Positions 2,162-57,729 of a stretch of 59,372 nucleotides of DNA are shown one piece after another. The DNA is from an uncultured Candidatus Bathyarchaeia archaeon. GTDB lineage: Archaea; Thermoproteota; Bathyarchaeia; TCS64; B23. Each line of letters begins with the position of its first letter. The stretch's first letter is position 1. The notes beneath the pieces are model-generated. The model was not told the DNA's origin. It saw only the letters and a program-made list of their open reading frames with translations, and did no database searches. The stretch is from contig CAZGKJ010000002.1 of the NCBI GenBank assembly GCA_964525955.1, forward strand, positions 1 through 59,372. Reading direction: 5' to 3'. The position numbers and the translations under genes were made by a program.

Positions 2162-2179
2162 GTAGGGATTTAAGGATCG

Positions 2180-4748: not shown

Positions 4749-4762
4749 CGACGATGGGAGGT

Positions 4763-5653
4763 TCAGGGTGGCTCATAAAATCCTTTCGATCCCCTCTTCA
4801 GCTCTCCCGCCAGCCTATGCGCCCACCTAATAGGTTCGGGAAGCCTATCACGTAGAGTTCTCAAGGCCAGCTCAACAGCCGTCTGAAGCGAAACCCTATG
4901 ACCTACGGAGACATAGACCCCACGACCATTCCGCCTCAAGACGGCTCCAACAACCCTATCTCTATGGATCAGCGGAGTCCAGCCATCCCTCGGCTCACCT
5001 TCACGCCCCACGAGTCTTCGGGCTGCGATGCCTATCGTCGGCAGGTTCAGCTCGACGCCGACGTGGGTCGCCAGGCCGCAGCGCCTTGGATGGGCTAAGC
5101 CGTGGCCATTCACCATCAACACATCGAGGGCTGACACACCCCTAACAGCCTCCTCAACAGCCGGAGCCTCCCTGAAGGCGAGATACCCAGGGATATATGG
5201 GAAGGAGACCTCCACAACGGCCTCGGAGGACTCGATGGGCCTCAAATCTGCGTCCAGGACGACGCAGACAGCATAGGCCACGTCACCCCTATATGCGACG
5301 TCGGTGCCGCCGATGAGCTCAGCCCTCTCAAAGTCGTCGAACTCCACAACCCTCGATGAGAGCTCCATCTGCAGCCTCCTCAGGGCCTCAAGGGGTCTGG
5401 AGGACTCGAAGTCGCCGTAGGGGTTCTCAGCCCCAGCGTCGACGAGGCCCCTCGCCCACCGAAACTCCTCACGTCTCAAGGCCTCCAGGACGGCTCTCAC
5501 GGCCCTGGCGTCTCCGAGGGCCTCAGCCAAAAGCCTCGGCGTCGTCACCCTCCCAGGGGGAATCTGCTCCAAGAGTCGCCTTAATTCCTTATAAAAATCA
5601 AGGGAAGATTGTTTCATTTTATAAGACACCCCAGTGAGATTCCCACATTTCAT
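4763..5653 (-). CDS. nfi: endonuclease V with N-terminal MGMT-type helix-turn-helix domain lacking the PCHR cysteine
   Basis: EndoV blocks are GGTDVAY, YIPGYLAFREAP, VNGHGLAHPRRCGLATHVGV and PTIGIAARRL. The N-terminal IPPGRVTTPRLLAEALGDARAVRAV resembles the alkyltransferase DNA-binding domain. The likely start is MKQSS at 5617. Confidence 0.85.
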   Translation of the reverse strand: MKCGNLTGVSYKMKQSSLDFYKELRRLLEQIPPGRVTTPRLLAEALGDARAVRAVLEALRREEFRWARGLVDAGAENPYGDFESSRPLEALRRLQMELSSRVVEFDDFERAELIGGTDVAYRGDVAYAVCVVLDADLRPIESSEAVVEVSFPYIPGYLAFREAPAVEEAVRGVSALDVLMVNGHGLAHPRRCGLATHVGVELNLPTIGIAARRLVGREGEPRDGWTPLIHRDRVVGAVLRRNGRGVYVSVGHRVSLQTAVELALRTLRDRLPEPIRWAHRLAGELKRGSKGFYEPP

Positions 5654-5718
5654 TTAAGTGATTTAATTTATCCCAATTTAACGTTAATTTTTTAAATATC
5701 TTAAAAATTCAGTAATAT

Positions 5719-6807
5719 ATGGAGGAATTGAGCACCATTTTACTCGTAGATGGGACCAGATATCAATTATGGAAACCTAATAATGAGAGAGTCTTCTCAG
5801 AATTAGTAAAAGATCACTTAAAGGATATCTTCGGTCCCAACCACATATATTTTGATATAGAGCCTAAACTAAGAACGGAGGCAGGTATAGGAACTAAACC
5901 AGATGGGATACTTTTGATTTTAAATGATAGACCTCAGTTATATATAGTGGAGTATGAATTATCAACCCATCCACTTCATGAACATATAGTAGCTCAGATG
6001 AGTAAATTTGCTACCGCACTAGAAAACATAAGAACGGTAAAGAAAATTGTTGATATCTTATACAATAACATAAATAAGGATCCATTTAAGAAGGCATATT
6101 TTGAGGCTGCAAATATAAAGCACATCCATAAATTTTTATTTGATTTATTTGAGAAAGAAATACGACTTGTTATTATAATTGATGAAAGAAACCCTGATTT
6201 AGATAAAGCAATGAAAATATGGCGTTCGCCATTTAAAATTGATATCATAGAATTTAGAACCTTTGAACACGAAAATGTCGGCATAAAAATTCATGCACAT
6301 CTTTTTAATACTATCCACATGCCTCCCTCCTTCCCTACTCCTGCATGGAATGAATTTTGGAAAGAACTTCTAGATAGATTATTTGAAGCTATGCCGAACA
6401 TACCAAAAAGACCTGCTTCAAAAGATCGTGTTCAATGGCTTAAGATAGAAAAAAGTATAAGAATCTATTATATGCATTTTGAATGGTGGGTTCATAGACG
6501 TATAAATGGTTGGTTTGAAATAGGACTGCACTTTGAGAAACCAAAAGATGCAACATATAATAGAAATGCTATTAGATGGTTTATGAGCCAGAAAGATGAA
6601 ATAGAGCAGAAGTTAAATGAAAGTTTATATTTTGAAGAAAAATGGGGAAAGACTAATGCAAGATTATACGTCAAAAGAGAGTTTGAAGGAGATATACTCC
6701 AAATCTCAGATGAATTTAAAAATTGGATAATTAATACAACCATTAAATTCTATAAGTTCCTTAAACCTAAAGTAAAGGAATATATAACGATCAATCCTTA
6801 TAAGTGA
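5719..6807 (+). CDS. hypothetical protein, N-terminal nuclease-like (PD-(D/E)xK-like) region plus DUF4268-like C-terminal region
   Basis: A long uninterrupted ORF in a strongly AT-rich segment. The N-terminal part contains KPDGILLILNDRPQLYIVEYEL. The C-terminal part has a W/F/Y-rich WFEIGLHFEKP pattern. Confidence 0.5.
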   Translation: MEELSTILLVDGTRYQLWKPNNERVFSELVKDHLKDIFGPNHIYFDIEPKLRTEAGIGTKPDGILLILNDRPQLYIVEYELSTHPLHEHIVAQMSKFATALENIRTVKKIVDILYNNINKDPFKKAYFEAANIKHIHKFLFDLFEKEIRLVIIIDERNPDLDKAMKIWRSPFKIDIIEFRTFEHENVGIKIHAHLFNTIHMPPSFPTPAWNEFWKELLDRLFEAMPNIPKRPASKDRVQWLKIEKSIRIYYMHFEWWVHRRINGWFEIGLHFEKPKDATYNRNAIRWFMSQKDEIEQKLNESLYFEEKWGKTNARLYVKREFEGDILQISDEFKNWIINTTIKFYKFLKPKVKEYITINPYK

Positions 6808-20233: not shown

Positions 20234-21037
20234 TTATGTGGTTGATCCCTTCGGCTGGAGCTCGAATTCGCAGTAGGGGTCTCCCATAGCTATGCACTTA
20301 ACCTCCCTGGCGGTCATCTCCCTCTTGAAGAATTCTGAAGCTATACCCGTTATGAGGCCTCTAATATACTGGCTGAAGGGATGCCCAGCTCCACGGCCAA
20401 GCTCGCACTCTATGGAGTTATATACTCTAACCCTCGCCCTTGGAGGGTTCTCCTGGAGCTCCATGAACTCTATTATGCCGTAGCCGAGGGCCTTCAGGGC
20501 CCTCGCAACGGTCTCCAACCCCTTATCAAGGCTCTTGATGCCCAGCCTCTGAGCCGACATAGCTGCGTGGCGCCCCCTGCTCCGACCTGCCTCGAGGCCG
20601 AGGTGGTATAGCATCGCCTCACCTCCACTGCCGAGGCGCTCCCTGAAGGAGACGAATATGCCTCGGAGCATCCCATTGTCGAGGATTAGTGCCCTCCTTC
20701 GACCGAGCATTATCGGGAATGTGGCGTCGTCGATGAGGAAGCCGTCGACGACCGGCTCTATGAGGATGACATCCTCCACGAAGTCGAGGGCCTTAAGCTC
20801 CTCGGCGATGGCTTGAGGAGTCACATCGGAGTCTGTGAAGTCTATGAGGAATATGATGCCTCCACGCTCACCCGCCTCGACGGCGATGGCTGTGGAATAC
20901 AATATGTCTAAACCCCTCTCAGCCATAATCGATGAGATCGATGCCAAAACGCCAGGCTTTGAGAATGCCTCAACAGTTATGCCGTAGAGCCTACGACCTG
21001 GACGATATATGAACCTCTGAACCTGGAATGGAATCAT
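20234..21037 (-). CDS. ACT domain plus V4R (4-vinyl reductase) domain protein, probable small-molecule sensor
   Basis: The N-terminal FSKPGVLASISSIMAERGLDI is ACT-like. The C-terminal CIAMGDPYCEFEL is typical of V4R domains. Confidence 0.6.
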   Translation of the reverse strand: MIPFQVQRFIYRPGRRLYGITVEAFSKPGVLASISSIMAERGLDILYSTAIAVEAGERGGIIFLIDFTDSDVTPQAIAEELKALDFVEDVILIEPVVDGFLIDDATFPIMLGRRRALILDNGMLRGIFVSFRERLGSGGEAMLYHLGLEAGRSRGRHAAMSAQRLGIKSLDKGLETVARALKALGYGIIEFMELQENPPRARVRVYNSIECELGRGAGHPFSQYIRGLITGIASEFFKREMTAREVKCIAMGDPYCEFELQPKGSTT

Positions 21038-21310
21038 ATCATGATTTTCTCTGGGGCGTCTTTAATCTTTTATGGATTGCTGCGGTGAGGGGAAAGAAGG
21101 GATATTGATAAGCCATTAAGGAACTAATGCGAGGTTTTCCTCTTTAAAATAAGAGGAACTTCTGATGAGCAATAGCTACTCGATTTACTCCAATGATCGG
21201 AGAGGTCGGTATAGAAGGTTCCACTAAAATTTAGGCAAAAATTGGAGTTAATCTTTAATAATTTCACAAGTTTTCTTATAATACGTACATTTCCTAAATC
21301 ACGTGAAAAT

Positions 21311-21318
21311 TTATAAAT
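21311..21318 (+). promoter_or_regulatory. TATA box candidate for the island operon
   Basis: ttataaat lies about 27-34 nt upstream of the ATG at 21345, consistent with a leaderless or short-leader archaeal transcript. Confidence 0.45.
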
Positions 21319-21344
21319 CAGCGCTGTATTAAATTTTGTATAGG

Positions 21345-21740
21345 ATGTCAGTAAGGGAAATCTACGAGGAGTTGCTTATAGATAAAACTAAAAGAGCAAA
21401 GGCGCTGGTTGAAAAAGCAAAGGGAATCCTAGGAATAGATAAGGATACTGGTGAACCATTAATTCTTGTATCTAGATCAAAATTAACAGACAGACTTTTA
21501 ATATCATTATACTTATGTGGTAAATATTTTGCATCGGAATTGGGATTGGTAGAAAGCCCATCTGCTACATTAGAAGAACTATCTAAAAAATTGGGTATTT
21601 CAAAAGCCGTTATTTCTGCTAGAATAACAGAACTTAAAAGAGAGGGAAAAATAAGAATGATAAATAGAGGAGAATATGCGGTTATATTTTCTATGATTGG
21701 ATCTATTTTAGATGAGGCTCGTGAGAAAATAGGTGATTAA
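21345..21740 (+). CDS. winged-helix DNA-binding protein
   Basis: The C-terminal TLEELSKKLGISKAVISARITELKREGKIRMINRGEYAV is wHTH-like. The ATG at 21345 is preferred over the TTG at 21336. Confidence 0.6.
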   Translation: MSVREIYEELLIDKTKRAKALVEKAKGILGIDKDTGEPLILVSRSKLTDRLLISLYLCGKYFASELGLVESPSATLEELSKKLGISKAVISARITELKREGKIRMINRGEYAVIFSMIGSILDEAREKIGD

Positions 21741-21741
21741 A

Positions 21742-21870
21742 ATGAATGACAATAAAATTGTTACTTTTAAAATAAAGGGAGACACTTACGAGTTAGAAAT
21801 TAAAGGAACTTTATCTGAATTGACGTCTGAAATAGATAACATAATTTTCTTTCTAAAAAAAATTAAATGA
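21742..21870 (+). CDS. 42-codon ORF, probably the N-terminal part of the following wHTH gene (break at an A8 run)
   Basis: The ATG lies 2 nt after the previous stop. The product is MNDNKIVTFKIKGDTYELEIKG... Removing one A at 21855-21862 fuses it in frame to 21893..22195, which itself lacks an ATG start. Confidence 0.4.
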   Translation: MNDNKIVTFKIKGDTYELEIKGTLSELTSEIDNIIFFLKKIK

Positions 21871-21892
21871 AAAATTACAATCATCTGGCATA

Positions 21893-22195
21893 TTGGAGGA
21901 GATTTCACCTGAGGAAATACCAACAGTAGAAGAAATAGAAGAAGCCCCAACAGAGGAAATTCCAGTAATAAGGCCCTCTAGAAGTACGATGGAGAATATA
22001 ATGGCACTTTTTGAACAAGATTGGGGCAAAAAACCAAGATCAGTGGCTGAGGTTATGAAAGCTCTTGAGGTTAATGCAGTACCGGACCATCCTGCAGCTG
22101 TTTCAACATATCTACGTAGATTAGTTAAAAGGGGATTTTTAAGAAGAATAAAGAAAGATAATTTATGGCATTATTATAAACTTCCAAGCACTTAA
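21893..22195 (+). CDS. winged-helix DNA-binding protein with acidic EEI-repeat linker
   Basis: The C-terminal SVAEVMKALEV...AAVSTYLRRLVKRGFLRRIKKDNLWHYYKL is wHTH-like. Only a TTG start is available. Confidence 0.6.
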   Translation: MEEISPEEIPTVEEIEEAPTEEIPVIRPSRSTMENIMALFEQDWGKKPRSVAEVMKALEVNAVPDHPAAVSTYLRRLVKRGFLRRIKKDNLWHYYKLPST

Positions 22196-22196
22196 G

Positions 22197-22793
22197 GTGG
22201 CTAGTTTGACGGGGCATTTAGCTCCGTATATCGGTAGCTCTGCTGAAAGAGACGTTAAAAAATTATTAGAAGCCTTAGGATACTCAATATTGCGAGAGAA
22301 TGTGATACATCCTAACATAGATAAGGTTATTAAATTTATTGGTATACCTAAACCTGAGCCACAAAACCAATGTTTTTTACAAAAACCAATTTTTTCTCCT
22401 CCATCTGAAGATATAATCGCAGTAAGTATAAAACAAAGAGATATAAGAATATCTGATATAAAGCAGCTTCTAGAAGATATTGAAGAAGCGAAATTATGTG
22501 AAGACCCAACGTTGCATAATATAAGTTCTGGTCTTATCATCACAAATTTTACTAAATTACCAAGTGAGATCAATCGTTATTTTGAAATGGGAATTTATTG
22601 TTGGGATTTACGTAGATTATTTTTTTACGCTTCTAAGATTAATAGACTGAGACATATGTCCTCTATAGGGCCTGTTAGAGAATTTATAATAGATTCACCA
22701 TCATTAAATATAAAAGCATCATATCTTAGATTATTGAACCCATCATATGAATCTAAAAAACACAATCGTGGGAAAATTCGTAATTTTTATTGA
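22197..22793 (+). CDS. Mrr-like restriction endonuclease (PD-(D/E)xK) domain protein
   Basis: AERDVKKLLEALGYSI, then DIIAVSIKQRD and then GLIITNFTKLP...IYCWDLRRLF follow the Mrr_cat order of motifs. A GTG start lies 1 nt after the previous stop. Confidence 0.55.
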   Translation: MASLTGHLAPYIGSSAERDVKKLLEALGYSILRENVIHPNIDKVIKFIGIPKPEPQNQCFLQKPIFSPPSEDIIAVSIKQRDIRISDIKQLLEDIEEAKLCEDPTLHNISSGLIITNFTKLPSEINRYFEMGIYCWDLRRLFFYASKINRLRHMSSIGPVREFIIDSPSLNIKASYLRLLNPSYESKKHNRGKIRNFY

Positions 22794-23079
22794 TGAGCAT
22801 GATAGCGAATTTATTTATAGTGCTGATCACCATACAGAAGTATTAGAATATATTTATAGTAAAGAGATAAAACCTATGATAGAACAAAGAGACTTCAATG
22901 TATATTCACAATTTGAGGTGCATGTATTAGGAAAAGCTGCACCAGAATTAATAAGAAACTCTTATATAGAGTTCTCTAGGAGGTACTTACGCTCCAATGA
23001 AAAAGGAATAGGAGCGCTATTTGCTGCGGATATTCCAATATATCAATATGGGGTATCTCCTTGGAGCATTTTAATTTAA
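22747..23079 (+). CDS. hypothetical protein, possibly the C-terminal continuation of 22197..22793 (break at an A6 run)
   Basis: The overlap is 47 nt. Deleting one A at 22755-22760 joins ...NPSYESK to NTIVGKFVIFIDEHD in frame. Confidence 0.45.
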   Translation: MNLKNTIVGKFVIFIDEHDSEFIYSADHHTEVLEYIYSKEIKPMIEQRDFNVYSQFEVHVLGKAAPELIRNSYIEFSRRYLRSNEKGIGALFAADIPIYQYGVSPWSILI

Positions 23080-24451: not shown

Positions 24452-27229
24452 TTAGGGAGGGACTTTATGGCGGCTATAATATTCCTCCTCGATGGGGCTG
24501 ACGTACATCGAATAGAGGAGGCTGGGCCTCCTCCAGGCGATGATGGCGAGGGCTATCAGGGAGATGAGGCTGATGAGGTATCCAGCCTTCTCTGGGAGGG
24601 AGAGGTCATAGATTAAAATCACATCGGCGGGGGGATCAAACTCCGGAAGGGGGATATACATCATCCCTGGACCAGCCATGTAAATTTTAAGATTGGTTTT
24701 ATGGCTGCCCTCGACGAGGATGGCATGCCACTGCTTGAAATAGCATTCTTTAAATAATATTCCATCCGCTATCTCATTGAGTTTTATAATTCTCCTCTGA
24801 GGATTTATAAATTGATAATCATAATCTAATTCATCATTCTTTTCTATCCCCTTAAGCCACCTCAGTATTCTAACTATAAATTTAGCCTCCTCCGAATTTC
24901 TGAAGCTTTTGGTGTGGTAGAAGAGGTTCATACCAGACCAGACGACCCTCCCCCTTCCATACTCCCCAGCTACGATGATCGGCTTACCCTGCGCACAGAT
25001 TATCGGCGCCGCCCACTCAGCAGTCTCAATGGTGGAGGAGACACCCCAGCCGAACTCCCCATAGCGAGGAGGTGAAAAGAGTGTGAAGTTCACTCCATCA
25101 GAAATGGGATGGGGGGAAACCTCAAACAACCAATCCTCCATTATGGATGAGGTATGCGTCTCCCTCACCGGAAACGGATCCGGAAGGGCTTCAGCTGCGA
25201 AATCTGGGGAGCCGTTGGCCTCTAAAAATAGGCAGCCCCCCTCATAGACATAAGCCGAGAGGAGCTCAGCCATCCGTTTGAGACTTTTATACTTATATCC
25301 ATAGAGGATTAAGAGGGGGAACTCCCTCAACTCCTTTAAGGTATAAGAATCTACAAGTTCCCTACCTAGAAGAGGTATGACGTAATCGCTTCCCAGACCT
25401 GTGATGCTTAGAGCTCTTAGGAAAACATCATACTTCTCCCTCGAACCGATAAAGAGGATGGGAGTTGTTTTAGTTGAATAAGCGATCCTAGAATAATTCA
25501 AATATTCAAATACACACCACACCCCCCTCTTCAAAGTCAAATTATAAGGCCCCCCATCAAATAATCCACATTCATTCCCTTCAGAAACAATCCATCTAAT
25601 TGCATACCAATCCAATAAGAAGTAAGCTTCATAAGTTTTAGGACGAACCCAAACCGTTTTCTCAAACCAGCTTTTCCAATAAGCATATGGAACACCCTGA
25701 TCATAATAATCCCTAGACTGTGGAACATCAAAATAATAATTAAACCATATAGCTATACTAGCATTCTTAATCCCAATCCTATATTGAACATCATTTCCTA
25801 TATTAAGACCTTCAGCTAAATAAGGCTTAAAATTCAACCCACCCCTTAACCTTATTTTCATTATGTTAAACCCTATTATTGGAGTCTCCAATATAAATCC
25901 AATTGTAATACATAATAGTAAAATGAATATTTTGATAGCTCTTTTTAAATCTTTATTAATTTTGACATTTTTAAATAATATGTTTAGAGAAAAGACTACA
26001 TATAAGCTGACACCTAAAATTGAGATACTATTTGGATGTTCCGGCCCAAATCCTGAAATATATAGGTTTCTTGGATAAAATTTGATATATCCCATATAGC
26101 TGTATATTAGAAGTATTATAAAGTATATGAGGGATGATATATTCCAAGCTTTTAAATTTTTATCCGAAGTTTTTCCTAAATATTTTATATTTAATATCGT
26201 TAGTATTATGAACATAGGAAATATTATGCAGAAGAGATCTAAGTGAGATGGCGTATATATTAGATATGATAATTTAGCTGGATCATAATTTACTCCTCCA
26301 ATTAACATTTTGCTTGCTCTATTTGGATTTGAAAATAGGAATTGCATAATGTATAGCATATTTAGAGGAAATATTATTAAAATTAATTTGAATATGTTTA
26401 ATAATGAATGTAGAAGGGATTTTCCTTTGAATATTAAAACTCCAAATATTAATGCTAATGCGGTTAAACCTCCTATTATATGTGTTAATATGCTTAAAGT
26501 TAATGATATTGGGAAAAGATATAGAGCTAATCGATTTATTCGCTTTTTATTATATATTAAGTTGAATAGATAGAGGGATAGACCAGCAAAGCCTAGTGAT
26601 AATACTCTAGCATATGTTCCAACTACGAACCAAAATACCCAGAAGGCTGGGGTGAATATTATTAACATTGGTCCCATCATCGTTAGGATTTCATCTTTCG
26701 TTACATCATATATTAGGGCTGATATGCTTACCATGAGAAGTATTATTGATGCTGTTGATAATATGTTTATTGAGTATTCCACTGGTATGTTGAATAGTTT
26801 GGAGGTTAAGGCTATCATAAAGTAAGATAATGGTGGGTAGGTTCCGCCAAAAATGGGGACTCCAAAGTCCCATTGATAATTCCACCAAAAGTTAGGGAAG
26901 TATTTAAGTATGTATTTTGCTTTGTAGATATGAGCATAGGCATCGCATCCTCTTGGAAAGGCTATTATTGGAGATGTTCCAACTATGAAGATAAAAGTGA
27001 AAACTGCTACAGCAGTATATATTACTAGGGATCGATATGCCCCTATTTTAGATGGCTTCGATACCGTCCTCACCTTCACCCCCCGGCGACTCTTGAAGAG
27101 TTGTAGTAAATCCTTAAGATCCCCCAATGATATTCCAGATCTATAGGCCATCTCTACGTGTCTGAAGCCGGTGTCATAGTCTCCGGCGTCGTAGTAGGCC
27201 CAGGCTAATGCGTAGTGGGCCTCACCCAT
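24452..27229 (-). CDS. large polytopic membrane protein with N-terminal TPR-like fragment and C-terminal soluble domain (GT-C-like glycosyltransferase is a guess)
   Basis: A 925-aa uninterrupted ORF. EAHYALAWAYYDAGDYDTGF is TPR-like, followed by more than 12 hydrophobic helices and then a soluble region of about 350 aa. No WWDYG motif was seen. Confidence 0.6.
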   Translation of the reverse strand: MGEAHYALAWAYYDAGDYDTGFRHVEMAYRSGISLGDLKDLLQLFKSRRGVKVRTVSKPSKIGAYRSLVIYTAVAVFTFIFIVGTSPIIAFPRGCDAYAHIYKAKYILKYFPNFWWNYQWDFGVPIFGGTYPPLSYFMIALTSKLFNIPVEYSINILSTASIILLMVSISALIYDVTKDEILTMMGPMLIIFTPAFWVFWFVVGTYARVLSLGFAGLSLYLFNLIYNKKRINRLALYLFPISLTLSILTHIIGGLTALALIFGVLIFKGKSLLHSLLNIFKLILIIFPLNMLYIMQFLFSNPNRASKMLIGGVNYDPAKLSYLIYTPSHLDLFCIIFPMFIILTILNIKYLGKTSDKNLKAWNISSLIYFIILLIYSYMGYIKFYPRNLYISGFGPEHPNSISILGVSLYVVFSLNILFKNVKINKDLKRAIKIFILLLCITIGFILETPIIGFNIMKIRLRGGLNFKPYLAEGLNIGNDVQYRIGIKNASIAIWFNYYFDVPQSRDYYDQGVPYAYWKSWFEKTVWVRPKTYEAYFLLDWYAIRWIVSEGNECGLFDGGPYNLTLKRGVWCVFEYLNYSRIAYSTKTTPILFIGSREKYDVFLRALSITGLGSDYVIPLLGRELVDSYTLKELREFPLLILYGYKYKSLKRMAELLSAYVYEGGCLFLEANGSPDFAAEALPDPFPVRETHTSSIMEDWLFEVSPHPISDGVNFTLFSPPRYGEFGWGVSSTIETAEWAAPIICAQGKPIIVAGEYGRGRVVWSGMNLFYHTKSFRNSEEAKFIVRILRWLKGIEKNDELDYDYQFINPQRRIIKLNEIADGILFKECYFKQWHAILVEGSHKTNLKIYMAGPGMMYIPLPEFDPPADVILIYDLSLPEKAGYLISLISLIALAIIAWRRPSLLYSMYVSPIEEEYYSRHKVPP

Positions 27230-32827: not shown

Positions 32828-33077
32828 GCTGGTCATAAGGCTGAGGAGGGTTCGAATAGAGCCTGAGAGGGAGAGGGAGAATCTCATAAACAGGTTGAAG
32901 ATAATCATCAGGAGACTTGAGAGGTTGATAGAGAACCCCAGCACACCAACCAAAATCCGGTTGAGAGCGATAGACACCCTCACCAGGGTCATCAGGATGT
33001 GCTACACCATGATCAGGGATGTGGAGATCGATAGCCTTGAGCGAGAGATTGAAACGCTTGAGGAAGAGGAGACGTGA
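32820..33077 (+). CDS. hypothetical coiled-coil protein (position compatible with a small terminase subunit)
   Basis: An 85-aa protein with heptad-like R/E/I/L content, immediately upstream of and overlapping the large terminase. The function is inferred from position only. Confidence 0.35.
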   Translation: MSELVIRLRRVRIEPERERENLINRLKIIIRRLERLIENPSTPTKIRLRAIDTLTRVIRMCYTMIRDVEIDSLEREIETLEEEET

Positions 33078-34437
33078 ACTAATAGAGAGGAAGAAGCTGA
33101 AGAAAGCGAAAATAAAACTCCCAACAGACCCAGTAGAGTTCTGCGAGAAGATACTCCATATAAGGCTGACAGGCTATCAGCGGAGGCTCCTAAGGCTTCT
33201 GGCTGAGGGCCATAGACGGATAGTTCTCAGATGGGCGAGGCAGACGGGTAAGACCTACATACTGGCTGCGGTTCTCATCTGGTATTGCTCAACGCATCCA
33301 GGCTCCACAGCCCTGATAGTTGCTCCAGGATTGAGGCAGAGCCTGATACTAAGCGACAGGATACACGGCCTACTGAACCAGATGGAGCCGAGCATCAGGA
33401 GGGGCGTCATCGAGAAGGCTCTTAGAACCATCATAAGATTCAGAAATGGCAGCCAGATCGTTGCACTCCCCAACAGCGAGCACCTATTGAGGGGCTATAC
33501 GGCTCATCTGGTCATCTGCGATGAGGCAGCCTTCTTCCACAACGATGAGGCCATCTTCCCCCACATCCTAATGCCCATGATGGCGACGACAAATGGCATC
33601 ATGATCGTAAGCAGCACACCCTGGGGAAGGAGATCAATCTACCATCAACTAAACCAAGACCCAGATTGGGTTTTGATCCACGTCCCCTGGACAGAGGCGG
33701 TTAAAGAGGGCATATACAGCAGAGAATTCGTCGGGGAGATTGAGAAGCTGAGGGAGACGAGGCCACAGGCATTCAGGATGGAGTATGAAGCCGAGTTCAT
33801 AGAGGATGAGGAGGCGTGGCTGAGCCAAGACCTACTGGCCAAAGCCATAGACGAGGAGCTTGAATACTACCGCATAGAGGACAGAGCCAAGGGGCAATTC
33901 TATATGGGTTTAGACCTCGCAGAGCGGAGAGACTACACAGCCATCGCAGTCATACAGCGGGAGGGGCAGCTGCTCAAGCTGGTTCATAGGCATAAATTCC
34001 CCCTCGGAACAGGCTTGGCGGCGGCCATAGGATACATAAAAACCCTAAGAGAAAACTGGAATGACATAAGGAAGATCTACGTCGACATAACGAAGCATGG
34101 AGACTACTTCATACAAGACATGCACGAAGCCGGAATACCGGAAGCAGAGGGCATCATATTCACACAGAGAAGAAAACAAGAGATGGCCCAGCTACTGAGG
34201 CAGAGAATACAGGAGGGAAGGCTACGAATACCCTACGACAGAGAACTCCTAAACGAGCTGAACATAGAGAGATACGAGCTAACCAAGACGGGAGCCATAA
34301 GGTTCTATCACCCAGAGGGGACACATGACGATCAATTCTGGGCGCTCGCCTTGGCGGTCTATGCGGCGGAGACGGAGGCAATACCGAGGAGGCCGAGAAT
34401 CTCGGTTAGGAGGCTCTTCGATGGGGGTATTCGCTGA
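33019..34437 (+). CDS. terL: terminase large subunit (TerL) ATPase-nuclease
   Basis: Blocks are YQRRLL, Walker A WARQTGKTY, Walker B HLVICDEAAFF, coupling motif VSSTPWG, RNase H-like nuclease Asp MGLDLAERRDYTAIAV and C-terminal GTHDDQFWALALAVYAAE. Confidence 0.9.
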   Translation: MWRSIALSERLKRLRKRRRELIERKKLKKAKIKLPTDPVEFCEKILHIRLTGYQRRLLRLLAEGHRRIVLRWARQTGKTYILAAVLIWYCSTHPGSTALIVAPGLRQSLILSDRIHGLLNQMEPSIRRGVIEKALRTIIRFRNGSQIVALPNSEHLLRGYTAHLVICDEAAFFHNDEAIFPHILMPMMATTNGIMIVSSTPWGRRSIYHQLNQDPDWVLIHVPWTEAVKEGIYSREFVGEIEKLRETRPQAFRMEYEAEFIEDEEAWLSQDLLAKAIDEELEYYRIEDRAKGQFYMGLDLAERRDYTAIAVIQREGQLLKLVHRHKFPLGTGLAAAIGYIKTLRENWNDIRKIYVDITKHGDYFIQDMHEAGIPEAEGIIFTQRRKQEMAQLLRQRIQEGRLRIPYDRELLNELNIERYELTKTGAIRFYHPEGTHDDQFWALALAVYAAETEAIPRRPRISVRRLFDGGIR

Positions 34438-34873
34438 GGAGCTTTACACGCCCCCTATGCTTCCCGCTTAGGGCCTCTATGAGCTTCTCATCAGCCGTGT
34501 ATAGGGTTGTGTTCAGCCTCTCGGCGAGGGCGACGTAGGAGGCGTCGTAGATGGTTAGATTGTTCTCCAAGGCTATCTTGGCTGTTAGCCTGGCGTATTC
34601 GCCTTTAAGCCCGTAGAGTTTGAAGCCGTAGAGGGAGAGGCTCTCAGCTATATCCATCAGCCTCTCAGCCTCCAATCGATCGGTGGAGTATCTAACGGCG
34701 TTCAACACCTCAAAAGGCATGAGGGCCGGAGCCGCCAGCTCGACTTTGCCGTCGATGTAGTCCTCCCTGATCCTCAGCGCCTCCTCTCGATCGGGTTCGA
34801 GGACATACCACTTGACGACGACGCTGGCGTCAACAACAAGCTCAGCGCCTCCCCCTCCACCTCCTGATCTCAT
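34406..34873 (-). CDS. vapC: PIN-domain toxin (VapC)
   Basis: LVVDASVVVKWYVLEPD and TLYTADEKL are typical of VapC. Its 3' end overlaps the terL 3' end by 32 nt, convergently. Confidence 0.8.
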   Translation of the reverse strand: MRSGGGGGGAELVVDASVVVKWYVLEPDREEALRIREDYIDGKVELAAPALMPFEVLNAVRYSTDRLEAERLMDIAESLSLYGFKLYGLKGEYARLTAKIALENNLTIYDASYVALAERLNTTLYTADEKLIEALSGKHRGRVKLLSEYPHRRAS

Positions 34874-35069
34874 CTACACCCCTCCAACCGGCCTTGGGCC
34901 TGATGAGGCTCCGCTCATTCAGGAGGACAGCCTTAGCGAGATTCCTAAAACCCTCACCCTCCAAAACACGGTGGATAGCCTCCCTGATAACCCCACTCCA
35001 ATTTATATGACTCAAACGCTCCATCCGACGCTTAGTCTCCTCATCCACCCTAACGGTGACCACAGGCAT
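34842..35069 (-). CDS. vapB: RHH (CopG-like) antitoxin (VapB)
   Basis: MPVVTVRVDEETKRRMERL...WSGVIREAIHRVL. Confidence 0.75.
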   Translation of the reverse strand: MPVVTVRVDEETKRRMERLSHINWSGVIREAIHRVLEGEGFRNLAKAVLLNERSLIRPKAGWRGVDEIRRWRGRR

Positions 35070-35105: not shown

Positions 35106-35165
35106 ACATGGGAGTTAAGCTTTAAGGTATTAGCTAATAATGTCAAGTAATTATTGGGGATCACA

Positions 35166-36225
35166 ATGGCCGAGAAGGGGGGTCTCGTCGTCTGGGCGGC
35201 CCTCTTCATCATCGGCCTCCTCATAGGCGTCGGAGCAGGCTATGGAGTCGCAGCCTCAACCTACGGCAGGAAGATCAAGGGCTATGAGGAGAGGGTCTCA
35301 GAGCTTGAGAAGACGAAGACAAGCCTCGAAACCAAGGTCTCGGAGCTCCAGAGCGACAAGGAGGAGCTGCTGGAGATGGTCGACGAGCTGAAGGAGACCC
35401 GTGAGGATCTGGAGTCAGAGATCTCTGAGCTTAGAGCAGAGGTTGAGGAGCTGGAGGGGAAGGTTCCAGCAGACCTCTGGGACCTCTACTTCAAGTATAT
35501 CAAGCCTAAGAAGTTCGTCGACCTAACCCACAGCTTCAGACCCGGCATACCACACTGGCCAGGCTTCCCAGACTCCAAGAGGGAGATACTATACTGGTAT
35601 GAGCCAGGCGTGGGAACCATGGGCTCAGGATTCTACGCAGAATACTTCTGCCATGTCGGCCAGTGGGGAACCCACTGCGACCCCCCCAGCCCACTTCATA
35701 AAGGGCCTGATGACCATCGACGAGCTTCCGGTCAAGTGGATGGTTCTGCCCCTCGTAGTCATCGACGTCCATGAGAAGGTGGCTGAAAACCCAGACTACG
35801 TGTTGACGGTCGACGACATAAAGGCCTGGGAGGCCAAATACGGCCCAATACCGGAGGGAGCCTTCGTTGCCATGAGGACCGACTGGTCTAAACGGTGGCC
35901 TGACATGGCTGCGATGAGAAACGAGGATGCCGAGGGCGTAGCCCACTATCCAGGCTGGACGCTGAGCGCCCTCAAATATCTCTTCGAGGAGAGAAACGTA
36001 ACAGCCATAGGCCACGAGCCGACGGACACGGATCCAGGGGTCAACACAACCAGGGGCATATACGCCTGCGAATCCTATGTGCTCTCCCTCAACAAATACC
36101 AGATAGAGCTCCTAACAAACCTAGACAAGGTTCCGGAGTATGGAGCCCTAGTCGTCGTCACATGGCCTAAACCGGAGAATGGGTCAGGGTTCCCAGCGAG
36201 GGTCTTCGCCATAATCCCAGGATAA
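35166..36225 (+). pseudogene. membrane-anchored coiled-coil protein fused to cyclase/kynurenine-formamidase family domain, split by a frameshift in a C7 run (35681-35687)
   Basis: A TM helix is followed by the SELEKTKTSLETKVSELQSDKEELLEMVDELKETREDLESEISELRAEVEELEG coil and then DLTHSF. Reading the C7 run as C6 restores HVGQWGTHCDPPAHFIKG, matching the HxGTHxDxPxH metal-binding motif. Confidence 0.7.
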
Positions 36226-36289
36226 ACCCCTTTTTATGACAGCCCACATTTTTGAAATGGGATAGATTATAAGTGGGAATATAGATGAA

Positions 36290-36556
36290 ATGGATGGGAT
36301 GGAGACCCTGGTCAGGGTGGATAGGAGAGGGAGGATCGTCATACCTAAGGCTGTGAGGGAGCGCATCGGATTGGGGAGGATGGCCAGGCTTAGAGTTGAG
36401 GGGGGGAGGATCACAATCGAGCCCGCCAGAAATCCCCTCGAAGCCTTAAGGAGGACGGTGAGGGTGAACATCACCGACGTGGAGGGGGAGCTCAGGGAGT
36501 TGAGGAGGGAGGCCGAGGAGCAGCTTAAGAGGGAGGCCTCAAGGCGTTGGCGATAG
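36290..36556 (+). CDS. vapB: SpoVT/AbrB-type antitoxin (VapB)
   Basis: LVRVDRRGRIVIPKAVRERIGL. Confidence 0.8.
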   Translation: MDGMETLVRVDRRGRIVIPKAVRERIGLGRMARLRVEGGRITIEPARNPLEALRRTVRVNITDVEGELRELRREAEEQLKREASRRWR

Positions 36557-36969
36557 TCGAAACAGACTTCATAATAGCCCTCCTAAACGAGAGGGACCGC
36601 CTCCACAGGATTTACATAGAGATAGCGGAGGAGGATAACCTCACCCTCTCCCCCTACACCCTCATAGAGGTTGAGATGCTATGGCTCTCCAGGAGGCTCA
36701 TAATAGAGGATTATGAAGCCTTCCAGAGACATCTCAACGACCTCCTCGAATACTACTCGATAAGGCTAATGACAGACAAACCCAGATACCATGCAGAAGC
36801 CCACAGACTGAGGAGGGAAAACAACCTAACCTACTTCGACAGCCTACACGCAGCTGCAGCCCTCACAGAAGACCTAACCCTCATAAGCTCAGACCCTATA
36901 TACCGCAGGGTGGAAAACCTAAAACACCTACACCCAACAGAATGGCGGGGCAGACGCCAATACCTATAA
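36547..36969 (+). CDS. vapC: PIN-domain toxin (VapC)
   Basis: MAIVETDFIIALLNERD, YFDSLHAAAAL and LISSDPIY. It overlaps vapB by 10 nt. Confidence 0.8.
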   Translation: MAIVETDFIIALLNERDRLHRIYIEIAEEDNLTLSPYTLIEVEMLWLSRRLIIEDYEAFQRHLNDLLEYYSIRLMTDKPRYHAEAHRLRRENNLTYFDSLHAAAALTEDLTLISSDPIYRRVENLKHLHPTEWRGRRQYL

Positions 36970-36994
36970 AACACCAAAACCAAAACCTAACGGG

Positions 36995-38008
36995 ATGAGG
37001 GGCAGAATCAAGAGGCTGAGGGTCAAAAACCTACTAAGCCTCAGAGACGTAACCATAGACTTCGGAGAAAAACTCACAGTCCTCGTAGGCCCAAACGCAG
37101 GAGGAAAAAGCAACATAATAAAAACATTAGAAACAATAAAAAGAAGCGTTGAATTCCAACCTAATCAAAAATTTCTTTTAAGCCTTTTAAAAATCGATTT
37201 TAAAGAGTTTATATTTGGAGGGGACACAAGAAAAGAAGGGCTCATTCAATTAGATGGGGTTATGAATGGAAAAGATTTTGAGTATGAAGCTAATCTATTT
37301 AGAAAGATTCCATTTGAAGATTACATTTTTTGGAAGCAAGAGTCTGATGCTGCTTCGTTCTTAGGTAAAATGGGATTTTATTCCTTTGTCCCTCAATCTA
37401 TATTGAATGAAGTTGAGATGGAGGAAGGCCCTATTTTATCCAGAGATGGATCAAATCTCGCAGGTCTCCTTGCTTATCTTAAGCTCACAGATTATAAGCT
37501 GTTCCATTCTATTGAGGAGAAACTTATGAGTTATGTCCCAGAGATTGAGGAGATCATATTATTTCCTAAAACTATTAAAGAAAACGCTGTGAAGAAGGTT
37601 TATCGAATATGCATTAGAGAGAGGGGATTTAAGGAATCCTTCACCAATATTTCGGATGGGACCCTAAGGCTTTTGAGCTTCGTTACGGCTCTAAGCCTTA
37701 ACCACTCTCTCGTAGCCTTTGAGGAGCCTGAGAACTGCATTCATCCCCATCTCCTGGAGCTCCTCGTTGATATGATGCGTAAGGCTGATTGCCAAGTCGT
37801 CATCACGACGCATTCACCCTATCTCCTGGATTATGTTGAGCCGGAGGAGGTTGTTGTTGTCTGGAGGGAGATGGGTGAGGAGGGATTGGAGACCAAGGTG
37901 AGGAGGCCCTCAGAGGAGGAGCTTGAGAGGGTTAAGGCTCTATTGAGAGATGGTTGGACTCTCGGGGAGGTCTGGTGTTCGGGGGTTATAGGGGGAGTCC
38001 CTGAGTGA
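36995..38008 (+). CDS. ABC/SMC-like AAA ATPase (AAA_21/OLD-family ATPase type)
   Basis: IKRLRVKNLLSLRDVTIDFG, Walker A GPNAGGKSN, signature-like SDGTLRLLSF, Walker B LVAFEEPENCIHP and ITTHSP. The core of the gene is AT-rich. Confidence 0.85.
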   Translation: MRGRIKRLRVKNLLSLRDVTIDFGEKLTVLVGPNAGGKSNIIKTLETIKRSVEFQPNQKFLLSLLKIDFKEFIFGGDTRKEGLIQLDGVMNGKDFEYEANLFRKIPFEDYIFWKQESDAASFLGKMGFYSFVPQSILNEVEMEEGPILSRDGSNLAGLLAYLKLTDYKLFHSIEEKLMSYVPEIEEIILFPKTIKENAVKKVYRICIRERGFKESFTNISDGTLRLLSFVTALSLNHSLVAFEEPENCIHPHLLELLVDMMRKADCQVVITTHSPYLLDYVEPEEVVVVWREMGEEGLETKVRRPSEEELERVKALLRDGWTLGEVWCSGVIGGVPE

Positions 38009-38535
38009 TCGGCATCGTCGTCGAGGGGCCGACGGATAAGGCGGCAGTTGAGACGATATGTAGAAGGCTTAGAATTCGATGTGAGGTGAGGTTCGCAAAA
38101 AGACCAGGGGGAAATGAGCCTAAAGCGATTAATAGCTTGATAAGACGGGAATTCCTCCCCATGGGAGCCGATAAGGTGATAGTCCTAAAGGATGAGAAGG
38201 CTTCACCAGGCGTATTAGAAACCATTCGAAGAATCATAAGAGAAACCCAAGACCTGATCGAGACGGAGCTTATAGTGATAAAGCCCGAGATGGAGGCCTG
38301 GCTCCTCGCAGACCCAGAGGCCGTCGAGAGAGTTCTGGGCCATAGACCGAGGATCAGGAACCCTGAGGAATGCGAGAATCCGGTGGATGAACTGGATAGA
38401 ACCGCTATGAGATGCGGTAGAAGATATATGAAGAGTCCAAAGCTTGTGCATAGAATCGTCGAGGAGATGGATTTGGAGAGGGCTAGGGAAAGATGTAGCT
38501 CCCTCAACCTCTTCCTCAGAAAACTCACCTCATAA
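38005..38535 (+). CDS. small TOPRIM-like protein (DUF4276/RloB/AriB class)
   Basis: A GTGA start-stop overlap joins it to the ATPase gene. The N-terminal IGIVVEGPTDKAAVETI matches the TOPRIM conserved Glu strand. A later acidic VIVLKDEK and EMEAWLLAD follow. Confidence 0.55.
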   Translation: MIGIVVEGPTDKAAVETICRRLRIRCEVRFAKRPGGNEPKAINSLIRREFLPMGADKVIVLKDEKASPGVLETIRRIIRETQDLIETELIVIKPEMEAWLLADPEAVERVLGHRPRIRNPEECENPVDELDRTAMRCGRRYMKSPKLVHRIVEEMDLERARERCSSLNLFLRKLTS

Positions 38536-38676
38536 ACAACCTTTAGAGCTATGCATCACCATCATGATCCCTAGAGTTAATCGCATCATGGAATCTTCTC
38601 TCAAATTCCCTCCAATCTCCTATGGCATCAACTCCTAGATCGACGCTATCAAAGAACTTAGTGAGATTAAACCGCC

Positions 38677-39009
38677 TCAAGCCTTTTCACCTTCAACGAT
38701 TCTCCTCCTTAAAGCCCTTAGGGTTCCTGAGACTCTTAGGACGTGGAGGGCGACCTGTGAGCCTTCCACCTCCGTTATGGCTGTGAGCGACGCCCTCATC
38801 CAGGGGAGCCATCTATGGTTGCATCTCACTATGCCGATTCGGTGTTGTTCATCGAACTCTATCAGGGTGGGCTCCAGCTTCCATAGGCCGTTTAGTCCGT
38901 ATAGCCTCTCAATGCTCCCCTTTATAGCCTCCTCCAAGTCTCTTCTCTTCACGGTTTCTCCCTCAACCTTGAAGGCCAGATATCTCCTCCTAATTGGTTC
39001 GACGGGCAT
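38677..39009 (-). CDS. rnp2: RNase P protein component 2 (Pop5 homologue)
   Basis: RRRYLAFKVEGE at the N-terminus, a length of about 110 aa, and co-transcription with the Rpp30 homologue. Confidence 0.8.
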   Translation of the reverse strand: MPVEPIRRRYLAFKVEGETVKRRDLEEAIKGSIERLYGLNGLWKLEPTLIEFDEQHRIGIVRCNHRWLPWMRASLTAITEVEGSQVALHVLRVSGTLRALRRRIVEGEKA

Positions 39010-39797: not shown

Positions 39798-40046
39798 ATG
39801 TATTTGTCTGAGGAAGCCGTCATAGGTAAGAGGGGGGTTCTAGTCATCCCGAAGGAGATTAGGGAGAAATTGGGCTTGAAGGAGGGGAGGAGAGTCCTCA
39901 TAGGAGTTGAGGGAGGTAAAATCATCATCGAGCCACTGCCCAGCGATCCCTTCAAGGTTCTGGAGGAGGTTATCGGCGAGCCTTATAGGGAGGAGGTGGA
40001 TGAGGAGAGGGCTATGAGGTGGATGAGGGAGCATGCCGGTCGCTGA
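39798..40046 (+). CDS. vapB: SpoVT/AbrB-type antitoxin (VapB)
   Basis: VIGKRGVLVIPKEIREKLGLKEG. Confidence 0.8.
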   Translation: MYLSEEAVIGKRGVLVIPKEIREKLGLKEGRRVLIGVEGGKIIIEPLPSDPFKVLEEVIGEPYREEVDEERAMRWMREHAGR

Positions 40047-40434
40047 CACGGATCTCCTATTCGCTCTAAATCCAATCGATCCAAAACATGAGAAGGCTCT
40101 GAGAAGCGTCAAAACCATAGAGGGGATAGTGGCGCCAGATACGGCCCTCCTAGAGTTCCAATTCGTCCTCAGGGGGAGGGGGAAGAGTAGAGATGAAATC
40201 AAATACGCCCTACTAGCCCTCCTAGAAATCCTGAGGAGATATGGGATTAGAGAGGTGAAGACCATTGATCTCAAGCTCCTAGCTCTACAATTGGAGTTAG
40301 AGGAGCGCTATGGATTAACCTACTTCGACAGCCTCATAGCTGCCTCAGCCCTAATTCAAGATGGAGCCGTCATCTCCGACGATAAAGCCTTTGATAAGGT
40401 AGAGGGGCTACGTAGGATACCTATCTCCAAATAG
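40033..40434 (+). CDS. vapC: PIN-domain toxin (VapC)
   Basis: MPVADTDLLFAL, YFDSLIAASAL and VISDDKAF. It overlaps vapB by 14 nt. Confidence 0.8.
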   Translation: MPVADTDLLFALNPIDPKHEKALRSVKTIEGIVAPDTALLEFQFVLRGRGKSRDEIKYALLALLEILRRYGIREVKTIDLKLLALQLELEERYGLTYFDSLIAASALIQDGAVISDDKAFDKVEGLRRIPISK

Positions 40435-56460: not shown

Positions 56461-57729
56461 TTGAAGGTGGTGAATTCTATCGATTTAGAGTATATTAGAT
56501 ATGTTTTAAATGAAGCTTATGAACGATTGAAGGATGTTTATCTGATCTCCTCCGCTCTAGGCCCCGTCAGGCTTTATGCCGCCGCTGACATAGTTGATAA
56601 GGAGTTCTGGACACTTTTCTGCGCCCTAGTGGATTTTCAAATCCCTGTTCAAAGGGTGCTAAATCCAATGCTCACAGGTCTAGTGGAATATATGGAGAGA
56701 AATGGTTTAAAATTCATCGACCTAATATTTGATAAGGAGCTTGCTGAAAAGGTTTTCAACACTTTTAGCTGGTCTTCAAAGAGGGGAGTTAGAAGAGGCT
56801 TCACTCATAGATTTGTGAAGATCGTCGATTTGATCCTCCTTTTAAATATCTTTAAAAGGATAATTGAGGAGTATGGCTCACTCAACGCTCCGATTAAAGA
56901 GGCTTATAGCAAGGCCATCAATGAAGTTGAGCCAATGGAGCATGTCTTTAAGGAGGTTGTTAGCTTATTTGCCCACTATGGCGGCAAACCTCCACTCACC
57001 CCAGTGAGGTTTGGCTCGGCTTTAAAGAGGTTAGCCTTGTTCACGAGGTGGATGGTTAGGCCATATCCAGACCTGGGACTGTGGAATTTCATAGATAAGA
57101 AGCACCTCGTGATCTCCTTGGATGAGGGTTTGAGGAGGATTCTTTTAAGAGCCTTCTCGATGAATGTGTCGATGAATTGGCGTGGAGTTCTAAAAGCTAC
57201 GAGATTTCTAAGGAAGATTAACCCCTCTGACCCCGCAAAATACGATTATTTACTTTCAAGATTATCTATAATGAAATACTGCGCCAAAGAACATGCTAGA
57301 TCAAGGTGTTATTTATGTCCAATTGCAAAGGTATGTGTATCAGCGAATGTTCCTATAGTGCCAAAGTCTAAGCCTTTAACAGGTAGAGAGGGAAAGATCT
57401 TTGAGAGGTTTCTAGAAATCTATGGAAATATTATTGACTCTGTTTCAACAGAGTATCCACTGGACAATTATTCTACTGATGCTTTAATTCATATGGTTAA
57501 CTGTAACAATTACATTGTTGAGGTTGAGTATGAACTCAACTACGTTGCTATTGGTCAAGTTATAACATATCGATATCTATACTTCAAAAAACATAAAAAA
57601 CATATTAAACCAATGATAATATGCATGAAATCATCAAAGGATTTAGAGGAGGCATGTAAGCTGGAACAGGGAATAGAAGTTGTGACGATTGAAAATTTAT
57701 CTAACGAAATTTCAGGGAGGCGGGTTTAA
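56461..57729 (+). CDS. DUF2400 (TIGR02757, HhH-GPD-like) protein with extra C-terminal nuclease-like domain
   Basis: LKRLALFTRWMVRPYPDLGLWNFI, INPSDPAKYDYLLSRL and the Cys cluster CYLCPIAKVC match the DUF2400 pattern. An additional ~110 aa contain TDALIHMVNCNNYIVEVEYEL. The gene is AT-rich. Confidence 0.6.
   Translation: MKVVNSIDLEYIRYVLNEAYERLKDVYLISSALGPVRLYAAADIVDKEFWTLFCALVDFQIPVQRVLNPMLTGLVEYMERNGLKFIDLIFDKELAEKVFNTFSWSSKRGVRRGFTHRFVKIVDLILLLNIFKRIIEEYGSLNAPIKEAYSKAINEVEPMEHVFKEVVSLFAHYGGKPPLTPVRFGSALKRLALFTRWMVRPYPDLGLWNFIDKKHLVISLDEGLRRILLRAFSMNVSMNWRGVLKATRFLRKINPSDPAKYDYLLSRLSIMKYCAKEHARSRCYLCPIAKVCVSANVPIVPKSKPLTGREGKIFERFLEIYGNIIDSVSTEYPLDNYSTDALIHMVNCNNYIVEVEYELNYVAIGQVITYRYLYFKKHKKHIKPMIICMKSSKDLEEACKLEQGIEVVTIENLSNEISGRRV

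Follow-up and report, generated by a model that had tools for sequence, protein, structure and literature searches.

Whether a toxin–antitoxin pair, an ABC-type ATPase and a small TOPRIM-like protein encoded in close succession make up one system or two was the question raised by four plus-strand open reading frames (ORFs) at positions 36290–38535 of a 59,372-nt stretch of Bathyarchaeia DNA, hereafter referred to as the window, whose source sample was a hydrothermal vent metagenome. The initial annotation, made from the sequence alone, had described these ORFs as a vapB-vapC module apparently co-transcribed with an ATPase gene and an overlapping TOPRIM-like gene. All four ORFs, the 25-nt spacer behind vapC and the GTGA overlap were recovered at the coordinates given there, and the motifs quoted (GPNAGGKSN, SDGTLRLL, LVAFEEPE, ITTHSP and IGIVVEGPTDKAAVETI) were all present, so that the layout itself was confirmed. 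The analysis described below favored a different grouping of the genes, in which two separate two-gene modules lie side by side in one Bathyarchaeia-like lineage, namely VapBC (36290–36969) and an autonomous HEC-01-type pair of ATPase and DUF4276 protein (36995–38535), the latter with an antiviral sensor-nuclease mechanism and cassette swapping. To this reading as a whole we assign a probability of roughly 0.6. That the pair is of the HEC-01 type and independent of vapBC is very probable, and the antiviral sensor-nuclease mechanism, which is drawn by analogy, stands at about even odds. The positions of the features are summarized in Table 1.

Table 1. Positions of the genes, protein motifs and variable segments at the locus (window coordinates)
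Feature	Position	Strand	Basis or remark
HEC-01A-type ABC ATPase (337 aa)	36995–38008	+	AAA_21 2e-33; PADLOC HEC-01A 2e-44
ATPase Walker A, G32–S39	37088–37111	+	GPNAGGKSN motif region
ATPase signature ISDGTLR, 219–225	37649–37669	+	motif
ATPase Walker B and catalytic Glu, LVAFEEPE, 239–246	37709–37732	+	E243, E244
ATPase H-loop TTHSP, 271–275	37805–37819	+	H273
HEC-01B-type DUF4276 TOPRIM-like protein (176 aa, GTG start)	38005–38535	+	PF14103 7e-14; PADLOC HEC-01B 1e-14
DUF4276 conserved acidic codons	E7 38023–38025; D63 38191–38193; E97 38293–38295	+	residue conservation
Hypervariable cassette 1: Insert 1 of the ABC fold (ATPase aa 48–125)	37138–37368	+	GC 0.31; GC at third codon positions (GC3) 0.24
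Variable cassette 2: ATPase C-terminal tail (aa 314–337) and DUF4276 TOPRIM core (aa 1–95)	37935–38288	+	swapped together
TATA-like box TATAAAA	36965–36971	+	30–24 nt before ATPase ATG; straddles vapC stop codon
vapBC presence/absence block	36236–36952	.	717 nt, replaced by 35–39 nt in other strains
vapB-like antitoxin (AbrB/SpoVT/MazE fold, 88 aa)	36290–36556	+	PF04014 4e-7; TIGR01439 AbrB 1.8e-9
vapC-like PIN toxin (140 aa, TTG start)	36547–36969	+	PF01850 1e-10; 10-nt overlap with vapB

Affiliation of the ATPase and its DUF4276 partner

The first protein of the pair, 337 aa in length, belongs to the OLD/PtuA-like ABC ATPases of the AAA_21 family. In addition to AAA_21, it matched AAA_15 and SMC_N in Pfam, and the best of its 148 PADLOC matches was the model PDLC04182 (HEC-01A). 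When a 72-sequence alignment of the family, in which Walker A, the signature, Walker B with the catalytic Glu and the H-loop were invariant, was used as a profile against the PDB, the class 1 OLD nuclease from Thermus (6P74) was retrieved with an E-value of 9e-19, followed by Eco8 OLD, PtuA, GajA and AriA. A Foldseek search with the AlphaFold2 model (predicted local distance difference test score, pLDDT, 92) returned PtuA/retron I-A effectors (1e-15), OLD (1e-13), Rad50/SMC and GajA, the PtuA, OLD and GajA matches falling in the range of 1e-15 to 1e-12. The sequence profiles, PADLOC and the structural comparison thus bore out the proposal that this protein belongs to the OLD/PtuA/GajA/AriA type of ABC ATPases.

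The ATPase profile also matched RecF, Rad50 and SMC heads, and the genes flanking the pair are housekeeping genes. Both observations would suit a housekeeping DNA-repair pair similar to bacterial RecF (ABC ATPase) and RecR (Toprim), which would be at home in RNase P/polyamine gene surroundings. This explanation was nevertheless regarded as highly improbable: the best matches of the ATPase were the defence ATPases OLD, PtuA and GajA rather than RecF, the pair shows a patchy phyletic distribution with heterogeneous neighbours elsewhere, and allele replacement and frameshifted copies (pseudogenes) occur in natural strains.

The 176-aa protein was assigned to DUF4276 with a Pfam score of 53 bits (gathering score, 30.2) and to the PADLOC model PDLC04191 (HEC-01B). 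DUF4276 and RloB have been placed in the Toprim superfamily (PMC12065111). The AlphaFold2 model of the protein (pLDDT 93) displayed the order β1 (residues 2–6)-α1-β2 (26–30)-α2-β3 (57–63)-α3-β4 (86–92), followed by a helical C-terminal half. In the family alignments, E7, G8, D11, D63, E97, W99 and D103 were invariant or nearly so; E7, located in VVEG just after strand β1, was kept in 45/50 and 78/79 family members. In the DxD motif after β3, D63 was invariant, and the position of the second Asp was occupied by H, D, E, K, S or R in relatives. The further invariant acidic residues D11, E97 and D103 could complete a metal site of DUF4276. Searching the model against the viral structures of BFVD gave an RloB-like protein as the best match (E 9e-4, TM-score 0.60), together with weak matches to DnaG primase. 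Among 79 family members, 13 weakly matched OLD-like_TOPRIM, 39 matched DUF3226 and five matched RloB, and a sequence-profile search of the PDB yielded only a marginal match to PH0156 (2P62, E 0.013). The initial annotation had taken the protein for TOPRIM-like on the strength of a conserved Glu near its start, and the Pfam family, the predicted β-α order, the conserved E7/D11/D63/E97/D103 and the RloB-like and OLD-like_TOPRIM matches all support such an assignment, a canonical Toprim active site being not proven.

PADLOC, the defence-system finder applied here, named the two proteins HEC-01A and HEC-01B. HEC-01 has been described as a candidate pair of an ABC ATPase together with a TOPRIM-like protein that is embedded in Hma systems and has an OLD-like metal site (Payne et al., bioRxiv 10.1101/2024.01.29.577857). 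The window pair agrees with it in composition, being a two-gene combination of AAA_21 ABC ATPase and DUF4276 in which both proteins have their best PADLOC matches in this system. It also agrees in layout, the genes being adjacent and co-oriented with an ATPase stop and a DUF4276 start that share the four nucleotides GTGA (38005–38008). Moreover, Insert 1 of the ATPase extends the N-terminal β-hairpin as described for HEC-01A. On the other hand, the window copy is archaeal and does not lie within an Hma system, its Insert 1 comprises about 78 aa compared with about 125 aa in most relatives, its DUF4276 protein has D-E-K in place of DxD, and the within-population cassette polymorphism described below has not been reported for HEC-01.

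The related systems were compared in the same manner. PARIS likewise encodes its ATPase (AriA, an ABC ATPase) and its TOPRIM effector (AriB, DUF4435) in two adjacent genes, and a sensor ATPase that releases or activates a TOPRIM nuclease provides the best working analogy for the pair. The AriA profile matched the window ATPase at 1e-32, but the AriA model equals Pfam AAA_21. Among the profiles that the initial annotation had put forward for comparison, AAA_21, AAA_15 and DUF4276 were matched, whereas the 176-aa protein gave no AriB or DUF4435 match at E ≤ 1. Since the partner is thus DUF4276 rather than DUF4435, membership in PARIS was rejected; the ATPase is also shorter (337 aa compared with about 460 aa), and the pair is not phage- or satellite-borne. 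Class 1 OLD proteins (P2 Old and the Thermus scotoductus OLD 6P74) and Gabija GajA are the closest solved relatives of the ATPase by profile and rank among its top structural matches, but their ATPase and TOPRIM parts are fused, whereas the window has two ORFs, and no UvrD-like helicase (GajB) was found among the neighbours of the pair; both assignments were rejected on these grounds. Septu PtuA and retron I-A headed the Foldseek results for the ATPase model, but the partner of PtuA is the HNH nuclease PtuB (plus a retron in type I-A) and not a TOPRIM protein. Finally, Mad3 and Mad4 of MADS combine an AAA_21-type ATPase with a DUF4276 relative, and both window proteins matched them weakly, with NCBIfam scores (80.9 and 23.5) that lie far below the respective cut-offs (420 and 160). 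Mad3/Mad4 are accessory in MADS, and neither a methyltransferase nor other mad genes lie near the window pair, which is surrounded by vapBC, a cyclase-family gene and genes for RNase P subunits; membership in MADS was therefore also rejected.

Relationship of the pair to the adjacent vapBC genes

In total, 91 related loci were collected, using metagenomes and a single genome for each GTDB species as sources and the ATPase alignment as the query for the genome contigs (loci and sequencing runs are designated L and X below). A DUF4276 ORF directly followed the ATPase gene in about 80 of the 91 loci. The archaeal loci came from Bathyarchaeia, Desulfurococcales, Culexmicrobium, Methanomethylicota, Korarchaeia-like archaea, Archaeoglobus and Njordarchaeota, and the bacterial loci from Chloroflexota, Planctomycetota, Acidobacteriota and Myxococcota. 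ATPase and DUF4276 are a conserved unit, and the four-gene block is not. Among 60 distinct co-directional upstream ORFs, a PIN gene lay directly upstream of the ATPase gene in only four (the window, L001, L002 and L009), at a gap of 26–27 nt, and these four represent one orthologous locus of close relatives with 84–94% nucleotide identity and the same synteny. The remaining upstream neighbours were heterogeneous, with Lon, helicases, tRNA synthetases and a methylase among them. None of the more distant pairs had an upstream PIN gene, and these 60 neighbours did not show vapBC linked to the pair in more than one independent lineage.

A tandem arrangement was encountered in the Desulfurococcales loci L005, L006 and L029 (positions 542–6413), in which three AAA_21-type ATPase genes are each followed by a small ORF and the DUF4276 protein after the third ATPase is just 81 aa long; the arrangement has the appearance of related ATPase modules arrayed locally.

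The vapBC genes were furthermore revealed to be a dispensable polymorphism in the population. In the same-lineage locus L008, the cyclase-family gene leads directly to the ATPase gene, 36236–36952 being replaced by 35 nt, and the vapBC-less joint 36235→36953 was observed in the DNA runs X7 and X8 beside vapBC-bearing contigs at comparable depth (5.8 vs 10 and 32 vs 47, respectively). All of these vapBC-less haplotypes retained both the pair and the TATA region.

The transcription and translation signals were then read against this background. vapB and the ATPase gene each have a TATA-like box about 25–30 nt upstream, that of vapB being TTATAA at 36268–36273, about 26 nt before the ATG at 36299 that is probably the true vapB start. 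No spaced Shine–Dalgarno motif was found before the vapB or the ATPase start, whereas vapC and DUF4276 each have one, namely GGGAGG at 36531–36536, 10 nt 5′ of the vapC TTG, and GGGGGAG 7 nt 5′ of the DUF4276 GTG. In crenarchaeal/TACK lineages, it is common for the leading gene of an operon to be leaderless and for the genes inside the operon to rely on Shine–Dalgarno motifs, and the pattern was therefore read as that of two operons. The initial annotation had noted that the A/C-rich spacer holds no TATA-like sequence; this is correct for the spacer itself, but the box in Table 1 lies just upstream of it. The TATAAA and the following CACCAAAACCAAAACCTAAC were invariant in all five aligned relatives, the vapBC-less L008 included, and the coding DNA around this stretch diverged by 6–16% in the same five. 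A tandem hexamer-like repeat, CACCAAAACCAAAACC, occupies 36972–36989 of the spacer, is likewise invariant in the five relatives and may be a regulatory or 5′-untranslated-region element rather than neutral spacer. A window-wide statistic of TATA positions was noisy owing to uncertain start codons; individual examples at −22 to −32 fit the geometry.

The region was present in one metatranscriptome at a depth of about 2, in which the RNA contig starts at about 36990, approximately 5 nt before the ATPase ATG, and vapBC has no RNA coverage. In a DNA contig of another run, the Insert 1 allele of this RNA contig sits behind vapC. The start of the RNA contig is suggestive of a separate ATPase transcript, the depth being too thin to settle the operon structure. 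Judging from these signals, the TATA box in front of the ATPase gene probably drives transcription of the pair, and the resulting mRNA would be leaderless or nearly so.

An explanation in which all four genes constitute one co-transcribed system, with the toxin–antitoxin (TA) pair regulating, stabilizing or cooperating with the ATPase/TOPRIM pair, has to be weighed against these results. The four genes are co-oriented, and the 25-nt spacer (36970–36994) lacks an oligo-T terminator, so that read-through from vapBC into the ATPase gene is possible. The arrangement is also kept in four relatives at 84–94% nucleotide identity. In addition, one low-depth metatranscriptome contig (run X25) joins 36235 to 38686 with 70 nt between them, which brings the ends of the cyclase-family and Rpp14 genes together; it would represent a haplotype without all four genes and suggests that strains can lack the 2.45-kb block in its entirety, although the evidence is weak, the joint being seen in none of 12 further DNA runs with joints examined. 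A four-gene system is, however, at odds with the restriction of the upstream PIN gene to a single orthologous locus, with the co-existence of vapBC-less and vapBC-bearing haplotypes of an intact pair in the same samples, and with the conserved TATA at −30 to −24 of an ATPase gene that lacks the Shine–Dalgarno motif of the internal genes vapC and DUF4276. The window also holds at least three vapBC-type pairs, the second of which is absent in relatives, and chance adjacency is therefore likely. The evidence does not show that the ATPase needs read-through from vapBC. We thus consider a four-gene system quite improbable, and the single co-transcribed unit of the initial annotation was not upheld.

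vapB and vapC themselves are an ordinary type II TA pair. Their likeness to VapBC is complete, with the antitoxin first, overlapping genes and the PIN acidic residues D7, E42, D98 and D116 all present, and nothing about them is unusual. The second vapBC pair (39798–40434; MazE 2e-11, PIN 2e-11) is absent from L002, L007, L009, L011 and L047, where a remnant of only about 93 nt marks the site. TA modules are gained and lost often in this lineage.

Variable cassettes and the proposed mechanism of the pair

When the window was compared with L009 and L001, the nucleotide identity was 0.85–1.0 over 4.6 kb of synteny and fell to 0.39–0.57 at 37058–37358. This drop reflects Insert 1, for which at least six allele classes with 12–26% amino acid identity were recognized, the rest of the ATPase being 71–93% identical. 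The edges of the cassette were sharp and recurred between runs: contigs that matched the window up to 37137 and again from 37369, with 207 foreign nt at the joint, were present in X3, X5, X6 and X7, X3 carrying both alleles. In the AlphaFold2 model, Insert 1 is located between helix H1 (38–51) and strand S2 (127–129) and is composed mostly of β-strands that extend the sheet of the N-terminal hairpin. Throughout the family, divergence was without exception faster in Insert 1 than in the other parts of the ATPase; in pairs whose remainder is 0.8–0.9 identical, the mean identity of Insert 1 is 0.51, and the window lineage represents the extreme case. A diversity-generating retroelement was considered as the source of this variation and rejected, as no template copy was found in the window and the alleles are unalignable instead of A-mutated.

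The initial annotation had interpreted the AT-rich core of the ATPase gene as a sign of acquisition. The compositional anomaly is real, the GC content being 0.33–0.37 at 37050–37650 vs about 0.55 in the flanks, and the GC3 of aa 48–125 contrasting with values of 0.6–0.7 in the neighbouring genes. The AT-rich part is, however, the hypervariable cassette, and since every allele of Insert 1 is AT-rich (GC 0.22–0.40), the low GC content is a property of the cassette pool and not of one recent transfer.

The second cassette showed about 50% nucleotide identity between the window and L002, L007 and L047, all of which carry the Insert 1 allele of the window, and its flanks were 90–98% identical. Both alleles of this cassette keep E7, D11 and D63. 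The corresponding joint, 37934→38289 with 330 nt instead of 354, was found in runs X8, X9 and X12, X8 holding both forms. Because the ATPase tail and the TOPRIM core are replaced together, their exchange suggests that they contact each other. Furthermore, L009 (4584–5112) and L011 (478–1006), which come from different metagenomes, share a 2-nt deletion that frameshifts DUF4276 (at a site corresponding to about 38278 of the window). Clustering at 90% identity placed 106-aa truncated products on eight contigs together with the DUF4276 protein. The cassette replacement, the co-existence of alleles, the frameshifts and the fast evolution of Insert 1 fit the signs of an evolutionary arms race. That natural populations carry the pair as modular cassettes with multiple alleles is a new observation.

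By analogy with OLD, Gabija and PARIS, the following mechanism is proposed. The DUF4276 protein would be translationally coupled to the ATPase, an oligomer of which would hold or gate the TOPRIM nuclease via its C-terminal tail. The surface-exposed Insert 1 would recognize a feature of an invader, and ATP binding or hydrolysis would then license the metal-dependent TOPRIM nuclease to cut nucleic acid, with the result that the invader is blocked or the cell is killed. Recombination between strains swaps Insert 1, proposed here to confer specificity, and, in a separate exchange, the tail of the ATPase along with the TOPRIM core, proposed to form the interface, and the population thus carries many variants of the pair. 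An ATPase–TOPRIM conflict module with the logic of OLD and PARIS, as anticipated by the initial annotation, is in this sense supported; it corresponds to the catalogued candidate HEC-01, whose function here is argued from its relatives.

Several observations weigh against the reading of two separate modules with an antiviral pair. In the canonical Toprim DxD motif, conservation does not extend to the second Asp, D63-E64-K65 being found in the window, and Foldseek with the DUF4276 model against the PDB gave no significant TOPRIM match, the best ones (E 0.013) being generic Rossmann-like folds. The promoter and the transcription start site were deduced from the sequence and from one depth-2 RNA contig, and an oligo-T terminator is missing between vapC and the ATPase gene. 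The sole HEC-01 representative that has been tested protected Escherichia coli against none of the coliphages tried (bioRxiv 10.1101/2024.01.29.577857). The pair is flanked by housekeeping genes (cyclase-family and RNase P subunit) in no recognized defence island, and it is all but missing from collections of phages, plasmids and viral contigs: a tblastn search with DUF4276 against phage and plasmid records gave no match, and IMG/VR contained only four weak relatives of the ATPase.

The lack of protection by the tested HEC-01 and of a defence-island context would also suit a selfish addiction module, similar to a TA system and devoid of an antiviral role, in which a TOPRIM toxin is restrained by the ATPase and the variation reflects the turnover of a selfish element. 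Pfam indeed labels AAA_21 as a putative AbiEii/type IV TA domain, AriA was called an "antitoxin" by its PDB depositors, and the presence/absence and frameshift polymorphisms are consistent with such a role. An addiction module fails to explain, however, why a surface insert should occur in at least six unrelated alleles on a catalytic core that is 71–93% identical, and the near absence of the pair from plasmid, phage and viral collections is not what would be expected of addiction modules, which usually thrive there. The two roles are also not mutually exclusive, PARIS acting both ways. A purely selfish role is accordingly judged unlikely, and the autonomous pair with an antiviral function is retained as the preferred reading.

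Genomic surroundings and significance of the locus

Proteins that share at least 90% identity with the spermidine synthase encoded in the window carry the name Candidatus Bathyarchaeota. The gene order at the locus is the cyclase-family gene, vapBC, the ATPase/DUF4276 pair and the RNase P genes Rpp14/Rpp30. A gene resembling the terminase large subunit and another PIN/RHH pair are found about 2.5 kb upstream of the ATPase/DUF4276 pair, and the relative L001 carries CRISPR-Cas genes about 5 kb downstream. The terminase-like gene (Terminase_6N/6C, 33019–34437) is a lone one, adjoins the minus-strand PIN/RHH pair at 34406–35069 and is shared by L001, L008 and L009. It could be what is left of a provirus, or a terminase that has been domesticated. 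The cyclase-family gene (PF04199, 35154–36225) is a single 345-aa ORF in L001 and L002 and is split in the window into overlapping ORFs in different frames (35154–35774 and 35599–36225). At 35654–35761, numerous substitutions and indels mark a second population of contigs in the source sample. Either the frameshift behind the split is genuine, or two strains were merged into a chimeric assembly.

Further sharp low-GC islands (down to 0.25) were noted at 25300–26800, 5500–6700, 20900–22900 and 57100–57500. The first of them lies inside a 925-aa minus-strand ORF (24452–27229) without a confident Pfam family, and others fall in a DUF4268 gene and a DUF2400 gene; these islands could be further variable cassettes like that of the ATPase. 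Scanning the entire window for Rfam families and tRNAs gave no match.

As for its architecture, the locus offers nothing new, and the proposed linkage with vapBC dissolves. HEC-01-type pairs are widespread in archaea and bacteria and have the status of candidate defence systems, and what this locus adds is natural variation that maps function onto structure, through the multi-allelic Insert 1, the second cassette and the frameshifted copies. This variation indicates the probable sites of recognition and of subunit contact, and it shows that candidate systems of this kind experience arms-race-like dynamics among uncultured, hydrothermal Bathyarchaeia-like archaea. More speculatively, Insert 1 might be the trigger-sensing specificity element of HEC-01-type systems and the C-terminal tail with the TOPRIM core a co-evolving interface, both of which vent archaea would keep as exchangeable cassettes, like the shuffled specificity domains of type I restriction systems, and thereby spread immunities across the population. 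We put this forward tentatively, as a possibility that is itself doubtful; if it is true, these natural alleles would provide the first practical route to what the ATPase–TOPRIM family senses.

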